From positions 10,405-74,404 of the forward strand of contig CAZZHK010000014.1 in assembly GCA_964653725.1 (NCBI GenBank): a stretch of DNA of 64,000 nucleotides. Direction: 5' to 3'. This document shows positions 2 to 42,375 of the stretch, one piece after another. Below the pieces are notes generated by a model. It made no database searches. It was not told where the DNA came from and saw nothing but the letters and a program-made list of their open reading frames with translations. The stretch is from an uncultured Planctomycetales bacterium (lineage in GTDB: Bacteria; Planctomycetota; UBA1135; CAZZHK01). Made by a program: the position numbers and the translations under genes. How positions within the stretch are numbered: the stretch's first letter is position 1; the number at the start of each line of letters is the position of its first letter.

Positions 2-3000
2 CTCGTCGTGCTGACCGCAAAGGGCCGCGCCCAGCGCACCCTCTCGACCGCGCGCTCCTGCCCCGATTGTGCGGTCGGACTTCCCGAGATGGAGCCGCGG
101 CTCTTCTCCTTCAACGGCACCGAAGGCGCCTGTTCGTCCTGTGGGGGACTCGGCTCCCGCTGGACCGCCCGGGAGGACCGGGTGGTCGTGGACCCGTCCG
201 CCACCATCGCCGAAGGCGCCCTCAAGCCCATGTCGCGGGAAGGCCGCATGGCCTTCACGCGGATGACCCTCGATGCGGTCGACCAGGTCGCGCAGCGGTA
301 CGGGTTCGACGTCCACACTCCATGGGACCAGCTCACGGCGGACCAGCGCCACGTCATCCTGCGGGGCACGTCAGAGGACATCGAGATCGAATGGACCTGG
401 GTGGGGAAGGGGCACACCTCAAGCGGCCGTGACCGACGACCGGTCAAGGGCCTCCTGACCGCGATCGAGGAAGCGGCACAGGGGCCCAAACGGAAGGCCG
501 CCGAACGTTATCTGGCCTTCCGTCCCTGCGACCATTGCAGGGGCAGCCGACTGAACGGCTTTGCCCGGGGCGTCCTCTTCAGGGAACGCTCGCTGGCCGA
601 TCTCGTCCACCTCTCCATCGATGACCTCGCATCGTGGCTGGACACGGTCGAACTGGATGACCGGGAGGACATCGTCGGCCAGGACATCTTCAGGGAACTC
701 CACCAGCGTCTGCACTTCCTGGGTGATGTCGGAGTCGGGTACCTGTCCCTGGGACGGAGCGGGGCCACGCTGGCCGGAGGCGAGGCCCAGCGGCTGCGTC
801 TGGCCGCCCAGCTGGGAGCCGGACTTCGAGGCGTGCTCTACGTTCTCGATGAACCCTCCATCGGCCTGCACCCCCGCGATCAGGCGCGCCTGATCAAGGC
901 CCTCAAGCGTCTCCGGGACCGCGGCAACAGCGTGATCGTCGTCGAGCATGATGCGGCCACCACCCTGGCGTCCGACTGGGTGATCGAGATCGGGCCGGGT
1001 CCGGGAAGGGAGGGCGGCCGCCTGGTCGACGAGGGTCACCCCGCCCTGGTGATGGCGAACGGTAGGGGCGCCACGGCCAGGGCACTGAGGGGCGAGATCG
1101 GCGTCCAGGTGCCCGACCAGCGGCGGCCGACCGACGGTCCCATGCTGGTCGTCAGGGGGGCGCGGGAGAACAACCTCAAGGGGATCGACGCTGCATTCCC
1201 GCTAGGATGCCTTACCTGCGTGACCGGTGTGTCAGGGTCGGGCAAGTCCAGCCTGGTCGACATGGTTCTGAAGCGCGCCCTCGCCCAGTCCATGCAGGGA
1301 GCCCTGGACCTGCCCGGAGACCATGACCGCATAGAGGGCGCGGAGACCCTCACCGCAGTGGTCGAGATCGACCAGAAGCCGGTCGGCCGCACCCCGCGAT
1401 CCAACCCGGCCACCTACAGCCAGGTCATGGGGCCCATTCGCGACCTGTTCTCGTCGTTGCCGGCCGCCCGTGTGCGCGGCTACGGCAAGGAGCGGTTTTC
1501 CTTCAACGTGTCCGCATCCAAGGGCGGTGGGCGGTGCGAAGCATGCAAGGGCGGCGGCTTTATCCAGGTCGAACTGCAGTTCCTGGCCCCGGTGACCGTC
1601 GCCTGTGAAGAGTGCGGCGGACGCCGCTACACCGCTGAGACCCTGGAGATCGAGTTCAAGGGTTCGTCGATCGCCGATGTCCTCGAGTCCACCGTGGACG
1701 AGGCCCTGCAGCTGTTCGCGGCGATTCCGCCCATCGCCCGCACCCTGGGGATCCTGAGCGAGGTGGGTCTGGGCTACCTCCCCCTCGGCCAGCCGTCGAC
1801 AACGCTGTCGGGGGGCGAGGCGCAGCGAGTCAAGCTGGCCCGGGAACTCAGGAAGGGGAGGCGCGGCAGCACCCTGTACCTGCTGGATGAACCGACCACC
1901 GGTCTGCACGCGGCGGACGTCGAGCGCCTGGTGGGTGCGCTCCAGAGGCTCGTCGACGCGGGCCACACGGTCGTTGTGGTGGAGCACGACCCCGACGTCA
2001 TCAAGGTTGCCGACCACGTCCTGGACCTCGGACCCGAAGGCGGCGAGGCCGGCGGACACATCGTGGCCCAAGGGACGCCGGAGTCCGTGTCAGCCTCGCC
2101 TGGCAGCTACACCGGCAAGGCCCTCGCGAGCCACCTGCGCGCGACCAGGCGCCGCCCCCCCTCCTCGAAGCCGAAAAAGGCCCTGGCGCGGCGCCCCAGC
2201 CCGCAGCTCGTCGTGCGTGGCGCACGAACCCACAACCTGCAGTCCATCGATGCACGCATTCCGCACGGGTCGCTGTGCGTCGTTACCGGCGTCTCCGGGT
2301 CGGGCAAGACGTCCCTGGCCCTGGACACGCTGTTCGCCGAGGGCCGGCGCCGTTTTGTCGACAGCCTCTCAACCTACGCCAGGCGCTTCCTTGGACGCTG
2401 GGAACGCGCGCCCGTCGACAGCATCAGCGGTCTGTCGCCCAGCATCGCCATTCGGGCCGACATCGGCGCCCGATCGCCGCGCAGCACGGTCGCCACGACC
2501 ACCGAGGTGCACGACTACCTTCGTGTGCTCTACGCCAGGATCGGGATCCCTCACTGCCCGCATTGCGGAGCGCTCCTGCAGCAGTGGTCCGCCTCGGCCC
2601 TGGCCCGTCGCATCATCGCGGACCACGACGGGGAGGACGCCTGGATTCTCGCGCCGCTGTGGGCCAAGGGAGAACGAACAGACTCATCCACCGAACTGCA
2701 GCGACGCCGTGGGCTGCTGCGAAAAGAGGGCTTCCTGCGCGTCCTGGTCGACGGCAAGGAGCACCGTCTCGACGAGGGCCGCATCCCGATCCCCGCCAGG
2801 AGCACGCCGGCAGTCGACCTCGTGATCGACCGCTTGAGTGTTGCAGGCAGCATCCGGAGCCGGATGGTCGAGGCGGTGGAGGTCGCCATCCGCTTCGGAG
2901 GCGGCGTGGTCGCGGTTCAAACCCGGCGCGGCACTCGCCGTGACTGGGCTTCCCACGGCGGCTGCACGGACTGCTCCTTCCACCTCGAAGGGGATCTGAC

Positions 3001-5056
3001 CCCCCAGGGATTCTCGTTCAACACGCACGCGGGGGCATGCCCCGACTGCCATGGGGTGGGGGAGCGGCACGCTCTCGATCCCGCCCTGCTGGTGGACCGC
3101 CCGGACCGCAGCCTGGGCGACGGCGCGATGAGTTCGCGCCCGGCGCGGCAGCTTGTGCGACGCCGCGGCTATTACCGCCGCGTCTGGAGGAAGTTGTTCG
3201 AACAGCGCGGCTGGGACCCGGACGCGGCCTGGTCGGACCTGGCTCCGGCCGCCCGCCGTCTCTTCCTGGAAGGAATCGGGGACCGCCGCGTCGAGGTCAC
3301 CTTCCGGTCAGCCAAGCGCGGATCCGAGAGGAGCTGGACATTCCAGGCTCGCTGGCCCGGAGCGATCCGGGTCCTGGAGGAGTGGTACGAGCGGGGAGAA
3401 CAGGCGCCCTGGGCCGCCGACCTGGCCGAACTCATGGATCGCCGCACCTGCCAGGGCTGCGACGGTCGCCGGCTCAGGCCCGAGGCCCTCGCCGTGCGCG
3501 TGGGAGGCCGGGGCATCGCCGAGGTGAACGCCATGACCGTCCACGAGGCCCTTCACGCCTTCCGGAAGCTGAGGCTCCCAAAGTCCGACGCGACGGTGGC
3601 GGAGCGCGTCATTCGGGAGATCCGCGGCCGCCTGAAAGTGCTGGACGACGTGGGGCTCGGCACCATGTCGCTGGACCGGCAGACGTCCACCCTTTCCGGC
3701 GGCGAGGCCCGCAGGATCCGGTTGGCCGCCGCCCTCGGGTCGGGGCTTGTGGGTGTCCTCTATGTCCTCGACGAACCGACTGTCGGCCTCCATCCCAGGG
3801 ACACGGGGCGCCTTCTGGACACGCTCAGGGGGCTACAGGCACACGGCAACACCGTGGTGCTGGTGGAGCACGACGAGGACTGCATACGAGCGGCGGACTG
3901 GGTCCTGGACATCGGTCCCGGCGCCGGACGCCGCGGCGGCCGCCTGGTCGTCCAGGGGTCGCCGGAACGGGTCGCCCGCTCACGACGGTCCGCCACGGGA
4001 GCCCTGCTGCGCGGCGAACTGCGCCTGGAGCGATCCGGCGACCGGGACCCTCGCCCTGCTGAGGAGTGGATCGAGGTGACCGGCGCGGCTACCCACAACC
4101 TGAGGGACCTCACCGCACGCTTCCCTACCGGATGCTTCACCGTGGTGACGGGCCCCTCGGGGGCGGGCAAATCAAGCCTTGTCATGCACACCCTTGTGCC
4201 TGCCCTGCAGGGAAAAACTGGACCCTGGACATCCACCACCGGTCTGGGGACATTGGAGCGCTTGGTTGTTGTGGACCAATCCCCGATCGGCAAGACGCCC
4301 GCCTCGAATCCCGCGACGGCGACGCGCGTCTTCACGCCGATGCGGCGCCTGTTCGCGGAGACCCGCGAGGCGCGGGCCAAGGGTTTCGGCCCGGCCCGAT
4401 TCTCCTTCAACCGGGCCGAGGGCCGCTGCCCCGCCTGCGAAGGCAGGGGGGCGCTGCGGATCGAGATGCACTTCCTGGCCGACGTCTGGCTCACCTGCGA
4501 AGAATGCCGCGGACGCCGCTACAACGAGGAGACGCTCCAGATCCTCTGGAAGGGACGTTCTATTGCGGACGTGCTGGACCTCGAGGTGGGGGAGGCACTC
4601 GAGTTCTTCGGTCGGGTCGAGGAGATCCGGCGCCCGCTTCAGATGCTGGCGGACGTGGGACTGGACTACCTGCCCCTTGGGCAGCCGGCCAACACCCTTT
4701 CCGGCGGCGAAGCGCAGCGCCTTCGCCTCGCCACGGAATTGCAGAGGCGGACCGGAACAAGAAGGGACAAGCATGCACTTCTGGTGCTGGACGAACCCAC
4801 GACCGGCCTCCACATGCAGGACGTCGTGCAGTTGACCGGCGTCCTCCAGCGGCTGGTGGACGCGGGCGACACCGTCATCGTCGTGGAGCACCACATGGAC
4901 ATGGCCGCCCAGGCCGACTGGGTCATCGACATGGGCCCCGACGGAGGCGCCAAGGGCGGGCGCATCGTCTCCCAGGGGCGACCGGAGCATGTCGCGCGGA
5001 GCCGGCGCTCCGCGACAGCACCGTTTCTTGCCTCCCGTCTTGAGGTGCTGCAGTGA
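2..5056 (+). CDS. uvrA: Tandem (single-chain double) UvrA-family excinuclease ABC subunit A; 5' end lies outside the window
   Basis: The frame is open to the window edge. The first visible residues match the mid-UvrA zinc module (CPDC...EPRLFSFN...CSSCGGLG). Unit 1 then shows LSGGEAQRLRLAAQLG, a second Walker A (GVSGSGKSS), a C-terminal Zn finger (CEACKGGG...CEECGGRRY) and LSGGEAQRVKLA...LLDEPTTGLH. A basic linker follows, and a second complete UvrA unit starts near 2204 (LVVRGARTHNL...GVSGSGKTSL). That unit has both ABC modules, all Zn modules and a region the length of a UvrB-binding domain. There is no in-frame stop between the units. Confidence 0.9.
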   Translation, partial: LVVLTAKGRAQRTLSTARSCPDCAVGLPEMEPRLFSFNGTEGACSSCGGLGSRWTAREDRVVVDPSATIAEGALKPMSREGRMAFTRMTLDAVDQVAQRYGFDVHTPWDQLTADQRHVILRGTSEDIEIEWTWVGKGHTSSGRDRRPVKGLLTAIEEAAQGPKRKAAERYLAFRPCDHCRGSRLNGFARGVLFRERSLADLVHLSIDDLASWLDTVELDDREDIVGQDIFRELHQRLHFLGDVGVGYLSLGRSGATLAGGEAQRLRLAAQLGAGLRGVLYVLDEPSIGLHPRDQARLIKALKRLRDRGNSVIVVEHDAATTLASDWVIEIGPGPGREGGRLVDEGHPALVMANGRGATARALRGEIGVQVPDQRRPTDGPMLVVRGARENNLKGIDAAFPLGCLTCVTGVSGSGKSSLVDMVLKRALAQSMQGALDLPGDHDRIEGAETLTAVVEIDQKPVGRTPRSNPATYSQVMGPIRDLFSSLPAARVRGYGKERFSFNVSASKGGGRCEACKGGGFIQVELQFLAPVTVACEECGGRRYTAETLEIEFKGSSIADVLESTVDEALQLFAAIPPIARTLGILSEVGLGYLPLGQPSTTLSGGEAQRVKLARELRKGRRGSTLYLLDEPTTGLHAADVERLVGALQRLVDAGHTVVVVEHDPDVIKVADHVLDLGPEGGEAGGHIVAQGTPESVSASPGSYTGKALASHLRATRRRPPSSKPKKALARRPSPQLVVRGARTHNLQSIDARIPHGSLCVVTGVSGSGKTSLALDTLFAEGRRRFVDSLSTYARRFLGRWERAPVDSISGLSPSIAIRADIGARSPRSTVATTTEVHDYLRVLYARIGIPHCPHCGALLQQWSASALARRIIADHDGEDAWILAPLWAKGERTDSSTELQRRRGLLRKEGFLRVLVDGKEHRLDEGRIPIPARSTPAVDLVIDRLSVAGSIRSRMVEAVEVAIRFGGGVVAVQTRRGTRRDWASHGGCTDCSFHLEGDLTPQGFSFNTHAGACPDCHGVGERHALDPALLVDRPDRSLGDGAMSSRPARQLVRRRGYYRRVWRKLFEQRGWDPDAAWSDLAPAARRLFLEGIGDRRVEVTFRSAKRGSERSWTFQARWPGAIRVLEEWYERGEQAPWAADLAELMDRRTCQGCDGRRLRPEALAVRVGGRGIAEVNAMTVHEALHAFRKLRLPKSDATVAERVIREIRGRLKVLDDVGLGTMSLDRQTSTLSGGEARRIRLAAALGSGLVGVLYVLDEPTVGLHPRDTGRLLDTLRGLQAHGNTVVLVEHDEDCIRAADWVLDIGPGAGRRGGRLVVQGSPERVARSRRSATGALLRGELRLERSGDRDPRPAEEWIEVTGAATHNLRDLTARFPTGCFTVVTGPSGAGKSSLVMHTLVPALQGKTGPWTSTTGLGTLERLVVVDQSPIGKTPASNPATATRVFTPMRRLFAETREARAKGFGPARFSFNRAEGRCPACEGRGALRIEMHFLADVWLTCEECRGRRYNEETLQILWKGRSIADVLDLEVGEALEFFGRVEEIRRPLQMLADVGLDYLPLGQPANTLSGGEAQRLRLATELQRRTGTRRDKHALLVLDEPTTGLHMQDVVQLTGVLQRLVDAGDTVIVVEHHMDMAAQADWVIDMGPDGGAKGGRIVSQGRPEHVARSRRSATAPFLASRLEVLQ

Positions 5057-6735
5057 ACCAGGTGCGCCCCCAGGCGCCGCTGATCGTCCAGGGTGACCGG
5101 ACCATCACGGTCGAGGTCTACCACCCGCGGTACGAGGAGATCCGGGACCAGCTCAACCGGTTCGCCGAACTGGTGAAGTCCCCCGAGCACCTGCACACCT
5201 ACCGCATGACTCCGGTTTCGATCTGGAATGCCGCCGCACTGGGCGAATCCGCGTCGGCCATCCGGGAGTTCCTGCTGAAGGAGAGCCGCTACCCGGTTGC
5301 ACCCGCGGTGCTGGACGAGATGGAGTCATGGCTGGGTCGGTACGGGCTCCTGCGCCTGGAACGGGTGGACGGCACGCTCCAGTTGGCGTGTGACGACAGC
5401 GCCGTCCTGCAGGAGGTCCTGAAATTCCATGACGTCGCGGACCTGGTGGGCGAGTCCTCGAATGGCCCTGCTTCCGTCACGGTGCCGGAGGACCACCGAG
5501 GCCTGGTCAAGCAGGCCCTGATCGCCCTGGAGTATCCGGTCGAGGACCTGGCCGGATACCGCGAAGGCGCCCCCCTTTCCTTTGCCCTGCGGACCGAGAC
5601 GGCAGGCCGTGCACCCTTCACCGTCAGGCCCTACCAGGCGGACGCGACCTCCGCGTTCCACCGGGACGGGGGGCCGGTAGGTGGCAACGGCGTCGTCGTC
5701 CTGCCCTGCGGAGCGGGCAAGACCATCGTCGGCATGAGCGTCATGGAGAAACTCCAGACACGGACCCTCATCCTCACCACGAACCAGGTCGCGGTAGGCC
5801 AGTGGCGTGCGGAACTGCTCGACAAGACCACCCTGCAGCCCGACCAGGTGGGCACCTATACCGCAGAGCACAAGACGGTCTGCCCCGTCACCATCACCAC
5901 CTACCAGATGATGACGTGGCGCCGCAGCCGGGAGGGTGAATTCGAGCACATGGCGCTGTTCAACGAGCACGACTGGGGCCTCATCATCTACGACGAGGTG
6001 CATCTGCTGCCGGCCCCCGTTTTCCGGGCAACGGCTGACATCCAGGCGCGCCGCCGCCTCGGTCTGACCGCCACACTGGTGCGGGAGGACGAGAAGGAGG
6101 ACGAGGTCTTCTGCCTGATCGGTCCCAAGCGCGCGGACATCCCCTGGAAGGTCCTCGAGTCCCAGGGCTGGATCGCCAGCGTCCGGTGCGTGGAAGTGCG
6201 CGTTCCATTCTCCGGCGAACTCAAGCGCGTGTATGCCGCTTCACAAAACCGGCAGCGGTTCCGTCTCGCTTCAGAGAACGAGGCCAAGGACGATGCAGTG
6301 GAGCGCCTAGTGGCACTGCACGAGGACGACCAGATCCTCGTGATCGGCCAATACCTGGATCAGCTTCGCCGTCTGCGCGACAGACTGGACGTACCCATGA
6401 TCAGCGGGCGCACCCCGAATGAGGAGCGCGAACGCCTCTACAAGGAGTTTCGCGAGCGGCGGGTCAACACGCTCATCGTCAGCAAGGTGGGCAATTTCGC
6501 CGTCGACCTGCCCGATGCCAATGTCGCCATCCAGGTCTCGGGAACCTACGGGTCGCGGCAGGAAGAGGCCCAGAGGCTGGGACGGATCCTGCGGCCCAAG
6601 GAGGACGGCGCCGGCGCCACCTTCTACACCCTGGTGACCGAGGACAGCCGCGAGGGGAGCTTCGCCCAGAAGAGGCAGAGATTCCTCACCGAACAGGGAT
6701 ATGCCTACGAGATCCGCTCGGAGAGGCCGGAGTGA
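5053..6735 (+). CDS. xpb: XPB/Rad25/ERCC3-type SF2 DNA helicase (bacterial XPB homologue)
   Basis: Helicase motifs are LPCGAGKT (motif I), YDEVHLLPA (DEVH, motif II) and an RED motif in TATLVREDEKEDE, followed by a C-terminal RecA-like lobe (SKVGNFAVDLPDANV...SRQEEAQRLGR). The N-terminal ~130 aa resemble the XPB damage-recognition-like domain. The GTG start overlaps the uvrA stop (GTGA at 5053-5056). Confidence 0.9.
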   Translation: MNQVRPQAPLIVQGDRTITVEVYHPRYEEIRDQLNRFAELVKSPEHLHTYRMTPVSIWNAAALGESASAIREFLLKESRYPVAPAVLDEMESWLGRYGLLRLERVDGTLQLACDDSAVLQEVLKFHDVADLVGESSNGPASVTVPEDHRGLVKQALIALEYPVEDLAGYREGAPLSFALRTETAGRAPFTVRPYQADATSAFHRDGGPVGGNGVVVLPCGAGKTIVGMSVMEKLQTRTLILTTNQVAVGQWRAELLDKTTLQPDQVGTYTAEHKTVCPVTITTYQMMTWRRSREGEFEHMALFNEHDWGLIIYDEVHLLPAPVFRATADIQARRRLGLTATLVREDEKEDEVFCLIGPKRADIPWKVLESQGWIASVRCVEVRVPFSGELKRVYAASQNRQRFRLASENEAKDDAVERLVALHEDDQILVIGQYLDQLRRLRDRLDVPMISGRTPNEERERLYKEFRERRVNTLIVSKVGNFAVDLPDANVAIQVSGTYGSRQEEAQRLGRILRPKEDGAGATFYTLVTEDSREGSFAQKRQRFLTEQGYAYEIRSERPE

Positions 6736-8711
6736 GATCACCCCTGGCCGATCTGCTGTCCTCACTGCCGGACGAGGCAGTCAAGGATCTGCACGCATTC
6801 TGGTGTCCCGAGGGGGAGGAAGGCCGAGGTCCGCTCCTGGGTGCGATGACGAACGCCGGCTCGGTGGCCACCCGCTGGAACGACCTGGGCAGGAAACTGG
6901 TCCAGCTCATGGGCCATTTCCTGCGCGAGCCCGGCTACACGAACTCCACCAGCGCCCTCAAGCGATCGCGCTCCTTCGCGTTCCTCACCCCCTACGAGAT
7001 CGAGGCGGCCCTCGCCGCGCTGGCGCGCCGGGGCTTCCTGTTTCCGGTCGATTCCGCACCCTGGGGCGACGCGGGAACTGACGCGTTTGCCGTTCCCGAG
7101 GAGCTGGGCGTGATGCTGACCGATCTGCTGCGGCGCGAGAACGCCGGCGTGGCGGCATGCCTGGACATCCAGTCCTACCTGAAGACCCGCGACATCGCCT
7201 CCAACGGCACCTCTGAGGCGGCCGTCCGCCTCCTGGGGCGTCCCACGGCGGTTCTTTCCAGGCTGGAGACGACCACGCACCCGCTGGACGATCTGGTCCA
7301 CCGGACCGCCAGCGACTTCGGAGGCATCCTGACCCGCGCCATGTTCGACCCCCTCCACATGGAGTCTCCCGTCTGGGAGGACTCGGCGTGGAGGGCCGAT
7401 CTCGAGGACAAGTATCTCGGCGCGGTCACCGACCTGGCCCTGGAGCGATTCGGCATCCGATGCAACGAAGAGGCCCTGGTGCTGTTCCGCGAAACCATGG
7501 AGGCCATTTCCGGCACCGAGCCCCCGGTGCCCGAGCCGCAGAGCGTGGCCGAGGTGGGGATCGACCTGCTCAGCAACGTCTCGCGCTTTCTGACCTACCA
7601 TCAGGAGCACAGCGTCCGGTTCACCGCGAAGGGGTCCATCTTCAGGACCACTGCGCAGCGCATCGCCTCCAAGCTGCTGCCTGTCGCGGACGGAGAGATC
7701 GCCGACCTGGAAGTACTTGACCTGATCCGGCGCTTCTCGCTTTCGACGCGCCTGATCGCGAGAACAGCCGAACGCACCTACAGGGTGGGGCCGGAAGCGG
7801 TGGGGTGGGACAACCTGGATGTGGAAGAGAAGGCGCGCCGGTTTCTCCAGGCCATCGTCGAGGACCAGGACCTGCCCGGGGAGTACTTCCACCAGATCCG
7901 TCTTCGCCGCCTGCTCCTCGGCGAGCTGGCCGCGCTCGAAGACGGCGAGTGGGTCCCCGTCATGCGTCCCATGTTCGCAGCCCGCAATCGTTACCTGGCC
8001 CGCCTCGAGGAGTCTGAAGCAGGCGACTTCTTCGCCTCGCGATTCCGATACGCCCACTACATCCCCCTCGAGACGCCCCAGCAGATGGCATGGAACCTCC
8101 TGGACTGGGTCCGTCGCCGCCTCCACCCCCTCGGGCTTGTCGACCTGGGTTACGACGGCGCCGGCCGTCCCTGCGCACTTAGGCTGAGCACGCTGGGGGC
8201 CCGGGTGCTCCAGGGCCAGGGTGCGCAGGTCGACATCGCAGGCCACCTGGTCGTGAATCCCGATTTCGAGGTCGTGCTGTTTCCTGCCGGGGACGACCTC
8301 GACCTGACCCATGCCCTGGACCGTTTCTGCGAGCGCACCAAGACGGACGTCCTGCTGCACTACCTGGTCACAGAGGAAAGCGTGCTGCGCGGCATGGCCG
8401 AGGGCATGTCGCTGGACCACATGCTGGCCACCCTCAGCGGACACAGCCGCGTCGCGGTGCCGCAGAACGTCCTGTTCTCGCTCGAGTCCTGGTGCGAGCC
8501 CAGGGGGCGGCTCCGGATCGGCGGCGGAGGACACCTGAGCTGCGACCACGCCGAGACCCTCGACCGCGTGATGGGCCAGCCACCCCTGCGCGAACTCATC
8601 GAGGAGCGGACCGGCCCGGTCACGGTCCGGATCAAGAAGGACATCCCGGCGGCTCGCCTCCGGTCCCGGCTGTGCAAGGCCGGCTTCACCGTCGAGAAGA
8701 ATGGAGGATGA
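6732..8711 (+). CDS. XPB-associated protein; its C-terminal domain is homologous to the XPB N-terminal domain (p52/Tfb2-like partner candidate)
   Basis: Amino-acid composition is normal, unlike the R/G/P-rich antisense ORF 6762-8549. The GTG start overlaps the xpb stop (GTGA at 6732-6735). Residues ~506-625 align by eye with XPB residues ~10-135 (see findings). As I recall, a comparable conserved gene sits next to XPB in actinobacteria. Confidence 0.7.
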   Translation: MRSPLADLLSSLPDEAVKDLHAFWCPEGEEGRGPLLGAMTNAGSVATRWNDLGRKLVQLMGHFLREPGYTNSTSALKRSRSFAFLTPYEIEAALAALARRGFLFPVDSAPWGDAGTDAFAVPEELGVMLTDLLRRENAGVAACLDIQSYLKTRDIASNGTSEAAVRLLGRPTAVLSRLETTTHPLDDLVHRTASDFGGILTRAMFDPLHMESPVWEDSAWRADLEDKYLGAVTDLALERFGIRCNEEALVLFRETMEAISGTEPPVPEPQSVAEVGIDLLSNVSRFLTYHQEHSVRFTAKGSIFRTTAQRIASKLLPVADGEIADLEVLDLIRRFSLSTRLIARTAERTYRVGPEAVGWDNLDVEEKARRFLQAIVEDQDLPGEYFHQIRLRRLLLGELAALEDGEWVPVMRPMFAARNRYLARLEESEAGDFFASRFRYAHYIPLETPQQMAWNLLDWVRRRLHPLGLVDLGYDGAGRPCALRLSTLGARVLQGQGAQVDIAGHLVVNPDFEVVLFPAGDDLDLTHALDRFCERTKTDVLLHYLVTEESVLRGMAEGMSLDHMLATLSGHSRVAVPQNVLFSLESWCEPRGRLRIGGGGHLSCDHAETLDRVMGQPPLRELIEERTGPVTVRIKKDIPAARLRSRLCKAGFTVEKNGG

Positions 8712-22672: not shown

Positions 22673-23899
22673 ATGAAGCCTCTCCTCGCCCTCCTTCTCC
22701 TCGCTGTGCCCCTGGACCAGGCTGACCCGGTCCTGTCCTCGAGGGAGACTCAGCAACTGGGCAAGGCCATCGCAGGCTACTTCACCTCGCTGGACGAGGA
22801 CGAGGGCAGCATCAAGGCCCTGGACGGGGTGTTCAAGGTCATGAAATCGCTCCAGAAGAAGCACAAGGTCGACGACCTGCTGTCTCTTCCCTACGACTGG
22901 CAGGGCGCCTTCGAGCTGGCCATGCCGTATGCGAAGACGGGCCTGCGCAAGGCGCGGGTCGTGGAAGGCGAGATGGAAGGATCGCAGGTCTTCGGCTATC
23001 AGGTGCGCCTGCCCAAGTCCTACAAGGCCGACAAGGCCTGGCCCCTGGTCCTCTACCTGGTCCCCAACTCCGCCTACACCGATCTGAAGGATTCGCTGGG
23101 GCAGGCTGCCAAGGAAACCGACGCCTTCGAGGAATTGATCCTCATTGCACCCAGGCTGTCCGATGAGTCGGAATGGACCGAGTCCATCGCATTGGGCTCC
23201 GCCCTGTCCCCCCTGGGCTCAGCCCTGATGGCGTACCACGCGGACCACGACCGGATCCACGTGGTTGCAGCTCCGGGCACCGGGGTCCTGGCCATGCGCC
23301 TTGCGGTCCTGTTCCCGGGGCGGTTTGCCTCCGTTTCGTTCATGGAAGAGCCCGGGGACTGCGCCAGTCCCGCCAACCTGTCCAATCTGGCTGTGCTGGC
23401 CGGCGGGGCCGGCGCGGCTGCCCTCGAAGGACAGATGGGCGAAGCCGCAGGCCGTCTGGAAGTGCGGGACGATCCGCCAGCGGACCTGGCCGCCGTCTGG
23501 TCCTGGGCCGTCACCCAGGTGCGCAACTCGTATCCGACCCGCGTCACCTATCGCATGGCGGAGCCAGTCGGACGGGAGGCCTTCTGGGTGCGTGCCGCCT
23601 CGTTCGACTGGCGGGAGGACGCCGAAGTCTCTGAGCGGCCCGGGCTGACCGCCGAAGTAATCGACCGCAGCCGCATTGTCCTGGACTGCCAGGGGATCAC
23701 AGCCGTCAACGTCTATCTGTCCGACGCGCTCCTGGACCTCGACAAACCGATCACCATCGAGGCCAACGGCTCCGTGTGGACGGGCCAGGTCGAGCGCAAT
23801 GTCGAGAAGGCCCTGCAGCTGGTGTACCGCTCGAACGACACGCGGTTCGTCTACGCCAACAGCCAGTACATCGAGGTCCCGGAGAAGAGCGACGATTGA
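22673..23899 (+). CDS. Hypothetical secreted protein, alpha/beta-hydrolase-like core lacking the GxSxG nucleophile
   Basis: It has a signal peptide (MKPLLALLLLAVPL). An esterase-like strand pattern is present (PLVLYLVPNSAY ... IHVVAAPGTGVLAMRLAV), with AAPGTG where GxSxG is expected. Confidence 0.5.
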   Translation: MKPLLALLLLAVPLDQADPVLSSRETQQLGKAIAGYFTSLDEDEGSIKALDGVFKVMKSLQKKHKVDDLLSLPYDWQGAFELAMPYAKTGLRKARVVEGEMEGSQVFGYQVRLPKSYKADKAWPLVLYLVPNSAYTDLKDSLGQAAKETDAFEELILIAPRLSDESEWTESIALGSALSPLGSALMAYHADHDRIHVVAAPGTGVLAMRLAVLFPGRFASVSFMEEPGDCASPANLSNLAVLAGGAGAAALEGQMGEAAGRLEVRDDPPADLAAVWSWAVTQVRNSYPTRVTYRMAEPVGREAFWVRAASFDWREDAEVSERPGLTAEVIDRSRIVLDCQGITAVNVYLSDALLDLDKPITIEANGSVWTGQVERNVEKALQLVYRSNDTRFVYANSQYIEVPEKSDD

Positions 23900-23909
23900 C
23901 GCGGGACCG

Positions 23910-25385
23910 GTGAACCGCACCGGCGTCGCGCTCGGCCTGGTCGTCTTCGTGGGAGGCTTTGCCTCCCTGGCCTTCGAACTGCTCGCGGTCAGGCTGATGG
24001 CGCCGTATTTCGGCACCACCCCCGCGATCTGGACCAACGTGATCGCCGTGGTTCTGGGCGCCCTGGCGCTGGGCTACGCCGTGGGTGGTCGTATGGCTCC
24101 CTCCACCGGGATGCTCGTGCACGTGACCATGGGCGCCGCCGTGCTGGCCGCCTTGGCCCCTCCAGGGATCGTCTGGCTGGCTCCCTTCTTCCTGCCTGAG
24201 GGGCTCATGCTCGAGGACGCGTCCCGCATCCTCTCCGGCGGATCCCTGTCCGCCTCCTGTCTGCTCTTCGGACCCCCGGTGTTCCTGCTCGGCTGGATCG
24301 CTCCGGTCGCGATCCGCCTGGAGCCATCTGCATCGGCCGCAGGACGCGTCCTGGCCCTGTCCACGCTCGGCGGACTGCTGGCGGTTTTCGTGATCAACCG
24401 TTGGCTGGTGCCCCAGTGGGGCAGCCGGACCACCTTGTACGCCACCTCCGCGGTGCTGGCCGGGTCTTCACTCTGCCTGCGCTTCTCTCCGGGTTCCATC
24501 GCCTGCGTCACGGCATTGGCCGTGGCAGGCTTCCTGGCACCGGCGGTCACCGGCACCACCCCGCCCCCCGGAGGACGGATCGCGGCGGCGGTGGAGACCC
24601 CCGTCCAGTTCGCGCGGGTCATCGAATTCGAGGACGGCCGCCGGTGGCTGCAGGTCAACGAGGCCCTCGATTCGTTCCAGTCCGTCCAATCCGGGGCAGC
24701 GACGACCGGCGGCCTCTACTACGACGCCTTGGCGGTGGCAGCGGGGCTGACAGGCGCATCATCTCCACGGGTGGTCATTCTCGGCCTGGGCGCAGGAAGC
24801 GTTGTCCCCGCACTGCACGCCGCATGGGGGGCCCGCGTCACCGGCATCGAGATCGACAAGGGGCTGCTCAACCTCGCTCGCCGCGAGATGGGGCTCGCGG
24901 AACTCGAGGCGGCCGGCCTCCAGGTCGTCGGAGGATGGGACGCACGCGTCTTCCTGGACAGGGCGGCCGGCCTGAACCACTGGGACGTGGTCCTGTTCGA
25001 CGCCTACCGCAATCAGGTCGACATCCCCTGGACCCTGGTCTCCGGCGAGGCGTTCCAGGCAGCGAAGGCCGCTCTCGCACCGGGCGGCGTACTCGCCCTG
25101 AACATCGGCGCACTGGGACCGGCAGACCCGGTCCTCGCCGCCGTCGCATCCACAGCACGCTCCGTCTTCGGGTCGGTGGCGGCCTACGCGGTGCGCGACC
25201 AGAGAAACGTCCTCCTCGTCGCACCGGACCGCGACCTCCGCCAGGTCGCCGACGGCACGCCCCTGGAGGCCGCCGCCCGGAATCTGCGGCGGCTCCACCT
25301 GGTCCCTGGACCCATCCTCCGGGACGACCAGCCGATCCTGGAGACTCTGCAGGCGGAGTCGATGCGCAGGGGCCGCGACGGATGA
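23910..25385 (+). CDS. Polytopic membrane protein fused to a spermidine-synthase-like methyltransferase domain
   Basis: The N-terminus has ~7 hydrophobic spans (GLVVFVGGFASLAFELLAVRLMAPYFG...). The C-terminal Rossmann region reads VVILGLGAGSV...TGIEID....DVVLFDAY...IPW.L.S.EAF. I chose the GTG start at 23910; the ORF upstream of it overlaps the previous gene. Confidence 0.7.
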   Translation: MNRTGVALGLVVFVGGFASLAFELLAVRLMAPYFGTTPAIWTNVIAVVLGALALGYAVGGRMAPSTGMLVHVTMGAAVLAALAPPGIVWLAPFFLPEGLMLEDASRILSGGSLSASCLLFGPPVFLLGWIAPVAIRLEPSASAAGRVLALSTLGGLLAVFVINRWLVPQWGSRTTLYATSAVLAGSSLCLRFSPGSIACVTALAVAGFLAPAVTGTTPPPGGRIAAAVETPVQFARVIEFEDGRRWLQVNEALDSFQSVQSGAATTGGLYYDALAVAAGLTGASSPRVVILGLGAGSVVPALHAAWGARVTGIEIDKGLLNLARREMGLAELEAAGLQVVGGWDARVFLDRAAGLNHWDVVLFDAYRNQVDIPWTLVSGEAFQAAKAALAPGGVLALNIGALGPADPVLAAVASTARSVFGSVAAYAVRDQRNVLLVAPDRDLRQVADGTPLEAAARNLRRLHLVPGPILRDDQPILETLQAESMRRGRDG

Positions 25386-32912: not shown

Positions 32913-34523
32913 CTATCCGGGCACTTCGCAGTTCACGACGTCCGCCGCGCCCAGCCCGGCCCTGCGCGCTACGCCCACACCAAACCGCAGCACCTCCATC
33001 TGTCCCGGGGCATGGGCGTCCGAGCTGATGGTGACGCGGCAGCCCGCCGCGACGGCCGCCTCGGCGTCCTCGGCGGACAGATCCAGCCGCGACGGCTGCG
33101 CGTTGATCTCCAGTGCCACTCCGTGTTCGGCGCATGCAGCAAAGACCTTGTCGCGGTCGAAATCCGACGCCTTTCGCCGGCACAGGATCCTCCCCGTAGG
33201 GTGGCCGACCACGTCGATCCTGCCGCTGGACACCGCACGCACGAGCCTCTTCGTCATCTCGCCGCTCTTCTGCCGCAACGCCGCGTGCACCGATCCCACC
33301 CGCCAATCCAAGGTGCCCAGAAGGTCGTCGGGCAGGTCCAGGGCGCCATCCGCCAGAATGTCGACCTCCACTCCCGCCAGCACCCGGAAGCCGTCGGGGG
33401 CCTTCGCGCCACGGATCCGGTCACGGTGGGCCGCCGCCCGGTCCGCATCCATGCCGTTGGCCACCGTGGTCGACACCGAGTGATCGGTGACCGCCAGCCC
33501 TGACAAGCCTCGACGGACCGCCTCCGCAACCATGTCCTCCACCGTTGAGGTGCCGTCCGTCTCCTGCGTGTGGCAGTGCAGGTCCACCACCAAGTCAGCC
33601 AGCTCCACCAGATGGCCGTGGTCCTCCCCTAGCACGTCGCTTTTGTGTCGCCTTTCCGGCGGCACGTAGGGCACTCCGGCCGCGGCGAACAGCGCCGACT
33701 CGTCCTCCGCCTTCCCGCCCCACGCCTTCCCGCAGCGTTCAGCCAGATCCCGAACAAACTCCTCAGGTCCTGTCGCTTCCAGCAGCGCCCTCCCGAAGGA
33801 CTTTTCGGCCACCAGAACCACCTCCATCGGCAGCCCGGAGCCCAGGTCCTTCGTCCATCGACCTTCGGACCCCGGCGCCCAGCCTTCCGACTCCAGACGC
33901 CCCCCATCCGCGCCTCGGTCCCTGCTGCGCGCCACCACCGCCGCGTCCCTGACGGTGTCCTCGAATCGGCGTGCACCACCGGCAAGCACCAGCCCTTCTT
34001 CGCGGCCCAGGACCGCGGCCGTCTCGCGCCACGCAGCCCAGGCCTCCGTCAGGAGCCAACGCCCGTCGAACTCCCTCAGGTCCCCGATGCCGCACAGGAT
34101 CTTCGCGGCCGATCGCTCCCCGAATCCCTTCATTTCCGCCACTCTCCCGGTGCGGCACGCGGCTTCCAGGTCGTGGAGCGTCTCCACGCCGAGTCCTTGC
34201 CACATGCGCCGCGCACTCTTGGGGCCCACCCCTTCGACCCGCAGCACATCCATGAGGCCCGCGGGCACCTCAAGCAGGGCCTCCGCCGCGGTCCGCGACG
34301 CCCCCGTCTCGATGATCTCTGCCACTTCGCCCGCGATGCCCTTGCCCACGCCGTCCAGGTCCGTGAGCGTGCCGGCGGCGGAGCGCTCCTCCAGGACCCC
34401 CTCCTTGGCCAACGGACGAAGCGCGCGCGCTCCGCGCCGGAAGGCGTTCACCCGGAACGGATTGGCCCCGGCAATTTCCAGCAGGTCCGCGGCCTGGTGA
34501 AGGGCGGCCAGGATGTCGGTCAT
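32913..34523 (-). CDS. polX: Family X DNA polymerase with C-terminal PHP phosphoesterase domain (PolX)
   Basis: The N-terminal helix-hairpin-helix/Pol-beta-like region reads LLEIAGANPFRVNAFRRGARAL ... GVGKGIAG...I ... VEGVGPKSA. The PHP domain reads DLHCHTQETDG...AVTDHS...G.EVDI...V.GSVH...HPTGR. The ATG at 34523 overlaps the upstream stop (ATGA). Confidence 0.85.
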   Translation of the reverse strand: MTDILAALHQAADLLEIAGANPFRVNAFRRGARALRPLAKEGVLEERSAAGTLTDLDGVGKGIAGEVAEIIETGASRTAAEALLEVPAGLMDVLRVEGVGPKSARRMWQGLGVETLHDLEAACRTGRVAEMKGFGERSAAKILCGIGDLREFDGRWLLTEAWAAWRETAAVLGREEGLVLAGGARRFEDTVRDAAVVARSRDRGADGGRLESEGWAPGSEGRWTKDLGSGLPMEVVLVAEKSFGRALLEATGPEEFVRDLAERCGKAWGGKAEDESALFAAAGVPYVPPERRHKSDVLGEDHGHLVELADLVVDLHCHTQETDGTSTVEDMVAEAVRRGLSGLAVTDHSVSTTVANGMDADRAAAHRDRIRGAKAPDGFRVLAGVEVDILADGALDLPDDLLGTLDWRVGSVHAALRQKSGEMTKRLVRAVSSGRIDVVGHPTGRILCRRKASDFDRDKVFAACAEHGVALEINAQPSRLDLSAEDAEAAVAAGCRVTISSDAHAPGQMEVLRFGVGVARRAGLGAADVVNCEVPG

Positions 34524-36487
34524 CGGTTCGCCTCCAGGGCCACCAGGCACGGCTGGATGAAGTGCCACTGCTTCTTCGACTTGACCCAGTCTCTCAATTC
34601 ATCCCGAACGGGTTCCCAGCCCTTGCGGGCAGCCTCGAGGTAGCCGCGGCCCGGCAGCATGCCGTCCGCCAGGACCAGCGCCGGCGGGATCCAGCAGTTG
34701 GTGCCGCGCAGCGACGGTTCACGGAGCACCACGCCCGAGCCGTCAGTCGCCACCGCCTTGTAGAAGCGACTGCTGTCCTCGTCCCAGCCAGGACCGGCAA
34801 TGAAGTCTGCGAACAGTCCTGCCATGCGAGGGATGCGCTGGTCGGCAGGCAGCCATTCGGAGGCCTCGGCCAGCCCGTAGATGACGATGGCGTGCTGCCA
34901 CGGCAGCGTGTAGCGGTGGTCGGGAATCTGGCGTGCGTTGCCCTTGTTGTCGTTCAGCCAGCCCTTGCCGTGGCTCTTCTCGAGGCCGTCCATGTGCTTG
35001 ATCAGGAGTCCCATCGCACGCACATACCCGGCCCCGTCCCCGAGCGAGGCGCAATGGGCGAGAGTCCTGAGCGCCCAGCCGCTGCCGCGGACGCTGCCGG
35101 GCGCCCGGTCGTCCTTCGCGAAATGCCAGGTCAGGAGCGACTCCCCCACCGCCTGGATTTCGCGCTCCATCCAGCGCGATCCTGTGACGGCGTAAAGGGC
35201 CCACAACCGGTCCACGGTCAGGTGCTCGATGTCGTAGCCCGTCCAGCCGTTCCATTCCGCCAGCCATCCCTCAGGCTCGGGACCACGCAGCACGCGCAGG
35301 GCAGGATCAAGACGGTTGCGGCCCAGCTTGTCGTGCGAGCCGTGATGAGGCAGGCCCTCGGCCAGGAAGGCCCGGGGAACCGCATCCGCATCAAGCTCCC
35401 TCATGAGGGGCCGGAGCGCGTGCTGGTAGGTGGTCGGCAGTGCGACCGAGAGGAACGCCGGGTCGCGGGTCTGGGCCCACCGGAGCATGGCCTCGTCGAA
35501 CAGGCCGTTCCGCGGGGAGCCTGTCGTGTGGGTGTTTTTCACTTCGCCCCAGGCCGCATTCCAGCCGGGCTTCCAGGTCTGCCTCAGCCGCTTGATCACC
35601 TGGGAATTTCCGCGTTCCGCGCCGGCCGGCGCCTGGGCATAGGACCCGAACGCGCCGGTGTCGCGCATCTCGCCCGTCGGAACCAGGGTCACCGGGTTCT
35701 CGAGCAGCCGCCGGTCGGTGTCCGTCGGAGGCCGCCGGCCCGCCCACAGCCTCCATGTCTTGGTCTGGCCGTCCCCCAGCAGGCTGGACGCTCCTTCCGG
35801 CAGCAGAACGACCCGGTCCCCGCCATCCTTCTCCACACGCAGACCGTTGTCCCCACGCCAGGCCACGGTCCCATGCCAACCACGTGGGAGCTGCAGGTGC
35901 GCACCACGCACCAGAATCCTTCCCGGAGGATCATGGATGGGATCGTTGCGGAGCGTCACCTCCCCCACCCAGACCTCCTCCGCCATGCGCCGCCAGAACA
36001 CGTCCCACGACAGCAGCGTGGACCCTGGATCCAGAGAGTGCTCCAGCACTCCGACGGCCTTCCAGGTCGACAGCGGTCCCGGCACGGCCGTTCCGGCCGC
36101 GCCCTCCATCCGCTCGTCGTCCGCCGCGATCACGCGCATGTGCAGCGCCGGAGGGCGGCCCTGGTCCAGAAACAGGGCGGGGCCCTCCTCCTCGAGCACC
36201 CTGACCGCCAACCCGCCTCTCATGCGTACCTCTGCCTCCATCGCCCTCAAGCGCAGGAACAGCCACCGCACGGATCCGTCGGGCCAGAGGATTGACGGCT
36301 CTGCCCGGCAGGCCGTTCCGGCCAGCACAATTCCGACGTCCTGGCCCGGATCCAGGACGCCCCTCGCAATCGGCACCCCGCCCTCCGCCACCCATCCCCG
36401 GGGCACCCCCGCAGGCATGGTCACCCGGCCCACCACCTGGACCAGGGAGAACGCGGCCACTGCCACGAAAGGACTCATGAACCCCAT
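34520..36487 (-). CDS. Hypothetical signal-peptide protein (655 aa), family not recognised
   Basis: Amino-acid composition is normal (W/Y/K/H-rich), whereas the antisense ORF is R/P/G-rich. It has a hydrophobic N-terminus (MSPFVAVAAFSLVQVVG). The C-terminal half could be an alpha/alpha-toroid hydrolase or lyase, but that is speculation. Confidence 0.6.
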   Translation of the reverse strand: MGFMSPFVAVAAFSLVQVVGRVTMPAGVPRGWVAEGGVPIARGVLDPGQDVGIVLAGTACRAEPSILWPDGSVRWLFLRLRAMEAEVRMRGGLAVRVLEEEGPALFLDQGRPPALHMRVIAADDERMEGAAGTAVPGPLSTWKAVGVLEHSLDPGSTLLSWDVFWRRMAEEVWVGEVTLRNDPIHDPPGRILVRGAHLQLPRGWHGTVAWRGDNGLRVEKDGGDRVVLLPEGASSLLGDGQTKTWRLWAGRRPPTDTDRRLLENPVTLVPTGEMRDTGAFGSYAQAPAGAERGNSQVIKRLRQTWKPGWNAAWGEVKNTHTTGSPRNGLFDEAMLRWAQTRDPAFLSVALPTTYQHALRPLMRELDADAVPRAFLAEGLPHHGSHDKLGRNRLDPALRVLRGPEPEGWLAEWNGWTGYDIEHLTVDRLWALYAVTGSRWMEREIQAVGESLLTWHFAKDDRAPGSVRGSGWALRTLAHCASLGDGAGYVRAMGLLIKHMDGLEKSHGKGWLNDNKGNARQIPDHRYTLPWQHAIVIYGLAEASEWLPADQRIPRMAGLFADFIAGPGWDEDSSRFYKAVATDGSGVVLREPSLRGTNCWIPPALVLADGMLPGRGYLEAARKGWEPVRDELRDWVKSKKQWHFIQPCLVALEANR

Positions 36488-36525
36488 TCTGGGTCGTGCG
36501 CTCCCGTCCGACTAGCATCCAGACC

Positions 36526-37083
36526 ATGTGGGAATCCGTCTTGAGTGCGCTCACCGAAATCGGGGGATGGGACCTGCTGGGAATCTTCCTGTGCGCCTTC
36601 TTCGCGATCCTCGGGCTCATTCGTGGATTCGTTTGGCAGGCGGGCCGCCTGGTGGCCCTTTGGTGCGCGATCCTTGCGGCCCAGGTCCTGGCACCCCTTG
36701 GCGCCGTGTCCCTCCAGGCGGTCCTTTCCGGCGTCCCCGATCAAGTCGCAGACGGCAGCGCCTATGTCGTCGTGTTCTGCGGCGTCCTGTTCGCCGTGTC
36801 CCTGGCAACCCGGCTGGCGCGCAAACTGGTCCGATCCTCCCCCCTGTCGATGGCCGACCGGGTCCTGGGCCTGGCCCTGGGACTGCTCACGGGATTCTGC
36901 ATCCACGCCGTGGTGATCCTGGTCATGACCGCCTTTTTCAGCGAAACACTCGGCGCGGGACTCGCTCGGTCCCATACCGTCGCCTGGACAAGGGCCGCCA
37001 CCGAGGCGATCGCGCCGATGGCGACCCAGACCCTGCGCGAGCACCTCGGCACTGTGCTCGACGCCCTGCCCCACGGCCGCTAG
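36526..37083 (+). CDS. cvpA: CvpA-family membrane protein
   Basis: The sequence WDLLGIFLCAFFAILGLIRGFVWQAGRLVALW... and four hydrophobic helices of the right size are typical of CvpA. I chose the ATG at 36526. Confidence 0.7.
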   Translation: MWESVLSALTEIGGWDLLGIFLCAFFAILGLIRGFVWQAGRLVALWCAILAAQVLAPLGAVSLQAVLSGVPDQVADGSAYVVVFCGVLFAVSLATRLARKLVRSSPLSMADRVLGLALGLLTGFCIHAVVILVMTAFFSETLGAGLARSHTVAWTRAATEAIAPMATQTLREHLGTVLDALPHGR

Positions 37084-39092: not shown

Positions 39093-42120
<3,028 letters not shown>

Positions 42121-42288
42121 TGCTCCAGTGGCTGTGCATGACTGCACCTTGCGGCCGTCGTCCCCGCATACAGCGGCGGCTCCGCGACGGACTCTCACCG
42201 TCTTCCCGGATGCCGGACGAGGTCCCGGATTGTGAATCGCCCGGAGACAGCCCCCGGACGGACCTCCATGCTAGCCTCGGACAAAGAG

Positions 42289-42375
42289 TGGTACCAGGGG
42301 AGGGACTCGAACCCTCACGCCCTTGCGGGCAACGGATTTTGAATCCGTCGCGTCTGCCGATTCCGCCACCCTGGT
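42289..42375 (-). tRNA. tRNA-Leu (anticodon CAA), type II with long variable arm, CCA encoded
   Basis: I folded the cloverleaf by hand. The acceptor stem is ACCAGGG/CCCUGGU. The anticodon stem ACGGA/UCCGU carries the loop UUCAAAA. The variable arm is UGCCCGCAAGGGCG. The T arm is GAGGG-UUCGAGU-CCCUC, and the 3' end is ACCA. Confidence 0.9.

Follow-up and report, generated by a model that had tools for sequence, protein, structure and literature searches.

A fused two-unit UvrA and its XPB-containing gene neighbourhood in an uncultured planctomycete

UvrA, the damage sensor of bacterial nucleotide excision repair, acts as a homodimer (UvrA2), and in canonical class I structures (2r6f, 3pih, 3zqj and 9gxk) each protomer carries the full class I domain set. 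Cryo-electron microscopy of canonical UvrA2 has shown that UvrB loading is stepwise and asymmetric and that the second UvrB opens the dimer interface (PMC11985968). A fused UvrA has already been published for Planctomycetes (Seeger et al. 2021, Fig. 13; PMC8567305), and UvrA, UvrB, UvrC and UvrD were detected by liquid chromatography-tandem mass spectrometry in Tuwongella immobilis (PMC8567305). Here we describe such a gene at the start of a 64,000-nucleotide stretch (the window) from an uncultured Planctomycetales bacterium (GCA_964653725.1, contig CAZZHK010000014.1, positions 10,405 to 74,404, forward strand). We read the open reading frame (ORF), with a probability of about 0.8, as a tandem UvrA that serves bacterial nucleotide excision repair as its housekeeping damage sensor, in the single-chain form that is usual in Planctomycetota. 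The fusion is genuine but already known, being the phylum-typical UvrA of Planctomycetes; a first-pass annotation of the window, made from the letters alone, had implied that it was new, which does not hold for a gene that is published for the phylum and routinely annotated as UvrA. Like the fused proteins of T. immobilis and the cultured Fimbriiglobus ruber (P0041), it has two units per gene, each with a UvrB-binding and an insertion domain. Like the canonical homodimer, it has a full class I domain set in each unit (E values of about 1e-250), whereas its two "protomers" are parts of one covalent chain and share, after divergence, 42% identity.

Window positions 2-5056 hold 1,684 uninterrupted codons followed by a stop, and the frame exits the 5' edge of the window; this segment is the 3' 88% of a single unbroken fused uvrA gene. 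We recovered the full gene by looking up the downstream gene in public assemblies. The whole gene lies at L001:4227-10004 and encodes 1,925 amino acids (aa); L001 base 4949 corresponds to window base 1, and window and L001 are 99.99% identical. The exact 1,925-aa sequence is already deposited in NCBI, ENA and Logan. This recovery, which the first-pass annotation had proposed, gave the true N-terminus, 241 residues beyond the window edge, and confirmed the fourth ATP-binding cassette (ABC) site presumed to lie upstream, with a Walker A motif, GRSGSGKSS, at residue 41 of the recovered gene.

All sources for the junction between the units were short-read metagenome assemblies. Window 2050-2300 is byte-identical in the ENA and Logan assemblies of SRR5007147 and in the Logan assembly of SRR15461853, and an SRR2981515 contig that begins at about window position 2079 has a gene call crossing the linker uninterrupted. 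A stop or frameshift near the junction, which the annotation had named as the finding that would contradict a single polypeptide, is absent from all of these independent runs, and its claim of two UvrA units in one unbroken chain was borne out. The linker contains a C7 homopolymer (window 2155-2161), the single place open to an indel error, and the independent assemblies agree there. Furthermore, the GC content at third codon positions (GC3) is 0.81-0.88 and flat along the gene. The nucleotide identity of unit 1 to unit 2 is 65-70%, in patches only, and the halves are therefore not a collapsed or recent duplication; at the protein level they are 42% identical over 956 aa, in agreement with the earlier description of clearly diverged halves.

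The features of the fused gene within the window are given below, with motifs placed by alignment.

2-2125 (+): UvrA unit 1, residues 242-949 of 1,925 by translation; the first 241 residues lie upstream of the window
173-478 (+): unit 1 insertion domain (Pfam UvrA_DNA-bind, 60.6 bits, cutoff 23.2; unit-1 residues 299-400)
767-793 (+): unit 1 ABC signature I, TLAGGEAQR, with a lineage-specific Ser-to-Ala change (family consensus TLSGGEAQR)
836-871 (+): unit 1 Walker B I
932-952 (+): unit 1 H-loop I
1226-1252 (+): unit 1 Walker A of the second nucleotide-binding domain, GVSGSGKSS (alignment of 120 family members)
1535-1615 (+): unit 1 Zn3
1802-1840 (+): unit 1 signature II
1874-1909 (+): unit 1 Walker B II
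1970-1990 (+): unit 1 H-loop II
2126-2206 (+): inter-unit linker ASHLRATRRRPPSSKPKKALARRPSPQ, 27 aa, basic and proline-rich, the span between conserved landmarks
2207-5056 (+): UvrA unit 2, complete, residues 977-1925 plus stop (TIGR00630 and structure matches)
2288-2314 (+): unit 2 Walker A I, GVSGSGKTS
2447-2464 (+): unit 2 AIRADI in place of the family's AIDQKT ("IDQK" motif), with loss of the conserved Gln
2591-2923 (+): unit 2 UvrB-binding domain (Pfam UvrA_inter, 61.3 bits, cutoff 23.3)
3077-3397 (+): unit 2 insertion domain (Pfam UvrA_DNA-bind, 44.5 bits, cutoff 23.2)
3689-3715 (+): unit 2 signature I
3758-3793 (+): unit 2 Walker B I
3854-3874 (+): unit 2 H-loop I
4151-4177 (+): unit 2 Walker A II
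4427-4507 (+): unit 2 Zn3
4694-4732 (+): unit 2 signature II
4778-4813 (+): unit 2 Walker B II
4874-4894 (+): unit 2 H-loop II

Against the class I UvrA equivalogs TIGR00630 and PRK00349, the whole protein scored 2,177 bits in two stretches, above cutoff; for TIGR00630 (equivalog cutoff 729.8), unit 2 scored 1,046 bits and the window-truncated unit 1 scored 826 bits. Unit 2 matched solved UvrA structures end to end (9gxk_A, E = 5.5e-251; 2r6f_A, E = 1.5e-248). The UvrB-binding domain of unit 1 lies just upstream of the window (residues 143-246, UvrA_inter, 86.7 bits), and the segment of unit 2 that had been described only as having the length of a UvrB-binding domain scored well above cutoff as a genuine UvrA_inter domain. 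Because each unit has both a UvrB-binding and an insertion domain, we assign both by domain content to class I and not to the class II type. Class II UvrAs (Deinococcus radiodurans UvrA2, 2vf7; Ecm16, 7sh1) share the UvrA-type tandem ATPase core with this protein but lack the UvrB-binding domain that both units here possess.

Four sets of Walker A, signature, Walker B and H-loop motifs are present, two per unit, together with six zinc modules; each unit has three, the C-terminal zinc finger among them, with every CxxC pair present and conserved in the family. Across 120 relatives, the catalytic and zinc motifs are conserved in both units. The earlier statement that all motifs were intact thus stands for the presence of every set, but not for the LAGGE in signature I of unit 1 or for the AIRADI of unit 2, where the IDQK Gln, highly conserved in every family group, is exceptionally missing.

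The family was defined as the best 120 database matches to the full protein (121 proteins counting the query). These matches are all 1,783-2,512 aa long, nearly all at about 99% query coverage, and 43-53% identical to the query, which is no closer than this to any relative. The named ones are "excinuclease ABC subunit UvrA" from Planctomycetota, Gemmataceae, Isosphaeraceae and F. ruber, and the metagenome-assembled genomes (MAGs) with the same gene order are also labelled Planctomycetota. A single-unit hidden Markov model found exactly two head-to-tail UvrA units in 121/121 members. The family splits into a group of about 1.9 thousand residues (~1.9 kaa), to which the query belongs, and a ~2.3-kaa group with an extra C-terminal tail of ~350 aa. 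This tail follows unit 2 in fused UvrAs of the Gemmataceae/Isosphaeraceae type (~2.1-2.4 kaa; P0002-P0076, e.g., P0041 of F. ruber) and is missing from ours. Two fused UvrAs of the planctomycete type, P0004 and the one on the 8-kb contig L005, come from MAGs named "Asgard group archaeon" and "uncultured Enterobacterales", respectively; both names probably reflect binning errors.

Double-length UvrAs are not confined to this family. NCBIfam holds a curated 1,809-position model of a double-length "excinuclease ABC subunit A" (NF001885/PRK00635), which we take to be the ~1,786-aa chlamydial UvrA. It matches our protein collinearly across the junction (residues 14-1262 to model positions 6-1216); membership was ruled out by score (1,250 bits, cutoff 3,054), so that the architecture is common to both and the equivalog is not. 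A second fused type (~1.8-1.9 kaa) likewise has two UvrA units in one chain and is annotated as UvrA, but its unit 2, unlike ours, lacks the insertion-domain region. Its hosts include Fibrobacterota (Chitinispirillum alkaliphilum), Verrucomicrobiia, Kiritimatiellae, Nitrospinae, Nitrospiria, Spirochaetia, "Deltaproteobacteria" and others. Members of this type (L006, L023, L010; P0140-P0259) are 60-64% identical across phyla, which is unusually high and suggests horizontal transfer or strong constraint. Given the curated double-length model and the spread of the second fused type over many phyla, fused UvrAs are ordinary in sequence databases.

We examined the age of the fusion with a split-halves tree of 48 fused proteins cut in two, 12 single class I UvrAs and 6 class II paralogs (903 columns; neighbour joining only, 200 bootstraps). 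In the ~1.9-kaa group, the N-units formed a clade with 94-97% bootstrap and the C-units a clade with 98-100%; in the ~2.3-kaa group, both clades had 100%. Since N-units and C-units form separate clades, the tree places the fusion before the diversification of the ~1.9-kaa group. Each half grouped with the corresponding halves of its relatives, and the first-pass annotation, which had suggested placing each half on a phylogeny, was right in proposing an old fusion. A recent tandem duplication was ruled out by these separate clades and by the protein and nucleotide divergence given above. In the fused proteins of Chitinispirillales and Lentisphaerae, the N-units fell among ordinary single UvrAs and the C-units branched off deeply, which indicates that this second fused type arose independently.

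Next, we considered how the two units might work together. The basic linker reported earlier is indeed present; as its bounds we took the final conserved motif at the C-terminus of unit 1 and the first strand of unit 2. Across the 120 proteins, its length ranges from 23 to 43 aa (median, 29), and its sequence, in which R, A, K and P are frequent, is not conserved. A bounded length with a free sequence fits a tether over a fixed distance and hence supports intramolecular pairing of the units, and an intramolecular pseudo-dimer is plausible on this basis. Units 1 and 2 of one chain would fold together as two UvrA protomers do in UvrA2, with the flexible basic linker bridging the C-terminus of unit 1 and the N-terminus of unit 2, and the fused protein would scan DNA, sense lesions and load UvrB as UvrA2 does. 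Because of the tether, the halves could not part upon opening of the dimer interface and would stay together through that step, yet they would be free to diverge, and the two UvrB-loading sides could differ.

The halves do differ somewhat. In the ~1.9-kaa group, the UvrB-binding domain has a within-clade identity of 0.51 in unit 1 versus 0.37 in unit 2 and an identity to single UvrAs of 0.32 versus 0.26, while the ATPase cores are about equally conserved. Unit 2 also scores below unit 1 for both accessory domains (UvrA_inter, 61.3 versus 86.7 bits; UvrA_DNA-bind, 44.5 versus 60.6 bits), and its insertion domain is deleted in some relatives (P0048 and P0114). Unit 1 would thus be nearer to canonical UvrA, and unit 2 more derived, chiefly in its UvrB-binding domain. 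The asymmetry that the first-pass annotation had proposed is visible in these values, but it is modest, with unit 2 slightly more derived than unit 1. Its suggestion that one half might serve DNA and the other a partner found no support: both halves keep every domain, and the four ATPase sites are kept across the 120 relatives.

No second uvrA was found in the 64-kb window, and the genes around the fused gene are housekeeping ones; both points speak for the gene being the phylum's housekeeping UvrA in single-chain form. Three observations count against this reading. Neither uvrB nor uvrC was found in the 64-kb window, the sole stretch covered. The LAGGE signature of unit 1 and the lost IDQK Gln of unit 2 might leave two of the four ATPase sites weakened. 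Finally, deeper nodes of the halves tree had 12-62% bootstrap, which is compatible with either one or two fusions within Planctomycetota.

Among other explanations, the best surviving one is that pairing takes place between chains and not between the two units of a single chain, giving a four-unit assembly of two chains or a domain swap. A linker of at least 23 aa would also permit pairing between chains; on the other hand, the high local concentration of the two units favours pairing within the chain, the narrow window of linker lengths is easier to explain by a fixed intramolecular span, and the variants with only one insertion domain suggest a defined 1:1 pairing. We consider such an assembly unlikely. 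It is slightly less probable still that the one ORF yields two ~100-kDa subunits, by linker cleavage or by internal initiation at unit 2, which then form an obligate heterodimer. The linker, being basic, proline-rich and probably disordered, would be accessible to proteases, there are GTG codons at the start of unit 2, and the published proteomics gives protein identity, not intact size. However, the junction region has no promoter-like site, the linker has a tether-like narrow length range and no conserved cleavage motif, and the fusion has been kept phylum-wide although separate genes would do equally well for a heterodimer.

Downstream of the fused gene lie two genes whose linkage to it bears on its role.

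5053-6735 (+): bacterial XPB helicase (NCBIfam repair_heli_XPB, 826.7 bits, cutoff 610)
6732-8711 (+): 659-aa uncharacterised XPB partner (Pfam, C-terminal Helicase_C_3 only, an XPB N-terminal-domain fold)

The GTG start of XPB overlaps the TGA stop of uvrA (GTGA), and relatives show the same kind of 4-nt overlap (ATGA or GTGA); in this clade, the fused uvrA is translationally coupled to bacterial XPB and the p52-like protein described below. The gene order uvrA-uvrA, XPB, partner, thiE, thiL and tsaE also occurs in L088, L089, L090 and L091 and, as a read-through, in L085. In L086 the backbone is the same but XPB and the partner are both missing, so that this pair resembles a cassette that has been acquired or lost between uvrA and thiE. 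Fimbriiglobus, unlike our locus, has no XPB nearby.

To extend this comparison, we scanned metagenome contigs with an alignment of the partner protein and obtained 80 partner loci (L092-L171), with adjacency judged from the coordinates of the aligned regions. XPB was directly upstream of the partner in 67/67 loci that retained upstream sequence, and a UvrA-type gene was directly upstream of XPB in 46/46 of those 67 that reached far enough. Both UvrA units were visible in 30 of these 46 loci; most others were cut by contig ends. Five loci (L151, L153, L155, L159 and L167; positions ~3600-8300, +) had a degenerate UvrA-like gene of ~1,350-1,550 aa upstream of XPB. Its product has no UvrB-binding or insertion region, carries the signature LSLGE and has a decayed second half without a Walker A motif, and XPB and the partner still lie 3' of it in all five. 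The read-through in L085 (6001-13539; P0081, 2,512 aa), on a Planctomycetota MAG contig, is a single UvrA-UvrA-XPB ORF with no stop between the genes. Either a genuine fusion or an error that removed the stop could account for it; as Rosetta-stone evidence, this "triple fusion" was downgraded, being a read-through on one MAG contig in which XPB's own ATG is kept.

In eukaryotes, the TFIIH subunit p52 recruits XPB through a "clutch" domain, which follows winged-helix domains and has the fold of the XPB N-terminal domain (PMC6422496). This layout of domains recurs in the bacterial partner, for which it is known here from a predicted structure. An AlphaFold2 model built from 17 homologs had a predicted local distance difference test score (pLDDT) of 84 and a predicted template-modelling score (pTM) of 0.68, and its top 15 Foldseek matches in the PDB were all TFIIH p52/Tfb2 (E values down to 1.8e-9, probability 1.00). 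These alignments covered 430-680 columns with template-modelling scores (TM-scores) of just 0.2-0.3, as expected because the protein is flexible and has several domains. The C-terminal domain of the partner matched the XPB N-terminal domain with E = 3.5e-5; TFB2 chains matched the partner only with E = 0.12. The Pfam Tfb2 model did not match the partner and matched 2 of 17 relatives, with a best E value of 3e-4, so that support for a p52/Tfb2 identity at the sequence level is weak. The partner is nevertheless predicted to have a p52/Tfb2-like fold, with a helical/winged-helix N-terminal region and an XPB-NTD-like (N-terminal-domain-like) "clutch" domain, and a putative p52-like role in binding or regulating XPB is suggested by its adjacency to XPB in 67/67 loci. 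A 2012 study stated that a bacterial p52 homolog had yet to be found, and the function of bacterial XPB was called "elusive" in a 2026 review (PMC13024598). We found no published account of an XPB/p52-like pairing in a literature coverage that was incomplete, and we present it as a lead, not as a claim of novelty.

The linkage to XPB also raises the possibility that the fused protein is a specialised paralog outside UvrABC, either a sensor dedicated to XPB and the p52-like protein or a resistance or defence ATPase (class II UvrA, Ecm16, MADS). In its favour are the coupling to XPB and the partner in all 46 informative loci, the sub-lineage that keeps the XPB linkage though the UvrB-binding and insertion domains are gone from its UvrA-like gene, and the matches of the PADLOC models mad3 and mad8 to the ATPase domains. 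Against it, each unit retains its UvrB-binding and insertion domains and scores above the UvrA equivalog cutoffs, relatives have the same fused gene without XPB (L086 and L087), the gene context is housekeeping and syntenic, the PADLOC matches are generic ABC homology, and in the literature the fused gene is taken to be the UvrA of planctomycetes (PMC8567305). We therefore regard a specialised paralog as improbable, about as much so as cleavage into two subunits. The MADS models on P0001 scored 534 bits (mad3) and 217 bits (mad8), at residues 629-951 and 1605-1874. A class II/III-type paralog or defence ATPase as such was ruled out, both units being full class I and the mad3/mad8 matches reflecting shared ABC/UvrA-like ancestry.

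An assembly or sequencing artefact, in which adjacent uvrA genes were wrongly merged through a missed stop or an indel such as one in the C7 run inside the linker, is suggested by that run and by the short-read metagenome origin of every source but is effectively refuted already, and misassembly or frameshift ruled out, by a junction that does not differ between assemblies of at least two independent runs and is read across by a third contig, by uniform GC3, by 120 relatives that are also fused in frame with unrelated linker sequences, and by the publication of the fusion for cultured planctomycetes.

If the gene is the housekeeping UvrA in single-chain form, XPB and the p52-like protein probably act with it or downstream of it. 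A stronger version, which we put forward tentatively and think rather less likely than not to be correct, is that the fused UvrA is the damage sensor of a hybrid repair module in which it works with the bacterial XPB translocase and with a bacterial equivalent of p52/Tfb2 that had gone unrecognised.

The remainder of the 64-kb window, including the surroundings of uvrA, is ordinary chromosomal housekeeping. A cobalamin riboswitch (83 bits) adjoins tRNA-Leu(CAA) (window 42050-42272 and 42289-42375, both on the minus strand); it lies upstream of a long ORF (~40624-42050) without a Pfam match, which is followed by thiC (39093-40652) and then by a cytochrome c554-like protein (37080-39092). Two large ORFs with high GC3 also had no Pfam match (23661-25385, +, 574 aa; 34520-36511, -, 663 aa).

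Since the fusion was already documented, its confirmation here chiefly removes a false lead, and the adjoining uvrA-XPB-p52-like operon is more interesting than the fusion itself. The fused gene is nonetheless a natural single-chain UvrA "dimer" in which the four ATPase sites and the UvrB-binding and insertion domains can be mutated one by one, which is impossible in a homodimer. It bears in this way on open questions about the proximal versus the distal sites and about the passage from a symmetric UvrA2UvrB2 to an asymmetric pre-incision complex (PMC6486640, PMC11985968). The strictly conserved trio of uvrA-uvrA, XPB and p52-like genes provides a concrete and testable repair context for bacterial XPB. 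If the hybrid module were real, the XPB-p52 pair at the core of eukaryotic TFIIH would have a bacterial equivalent wired to UvrA, and the derived unit 2, or the relatives without UvrB-binding features, may have moved from UvrB towards the XPB/p52-like module.

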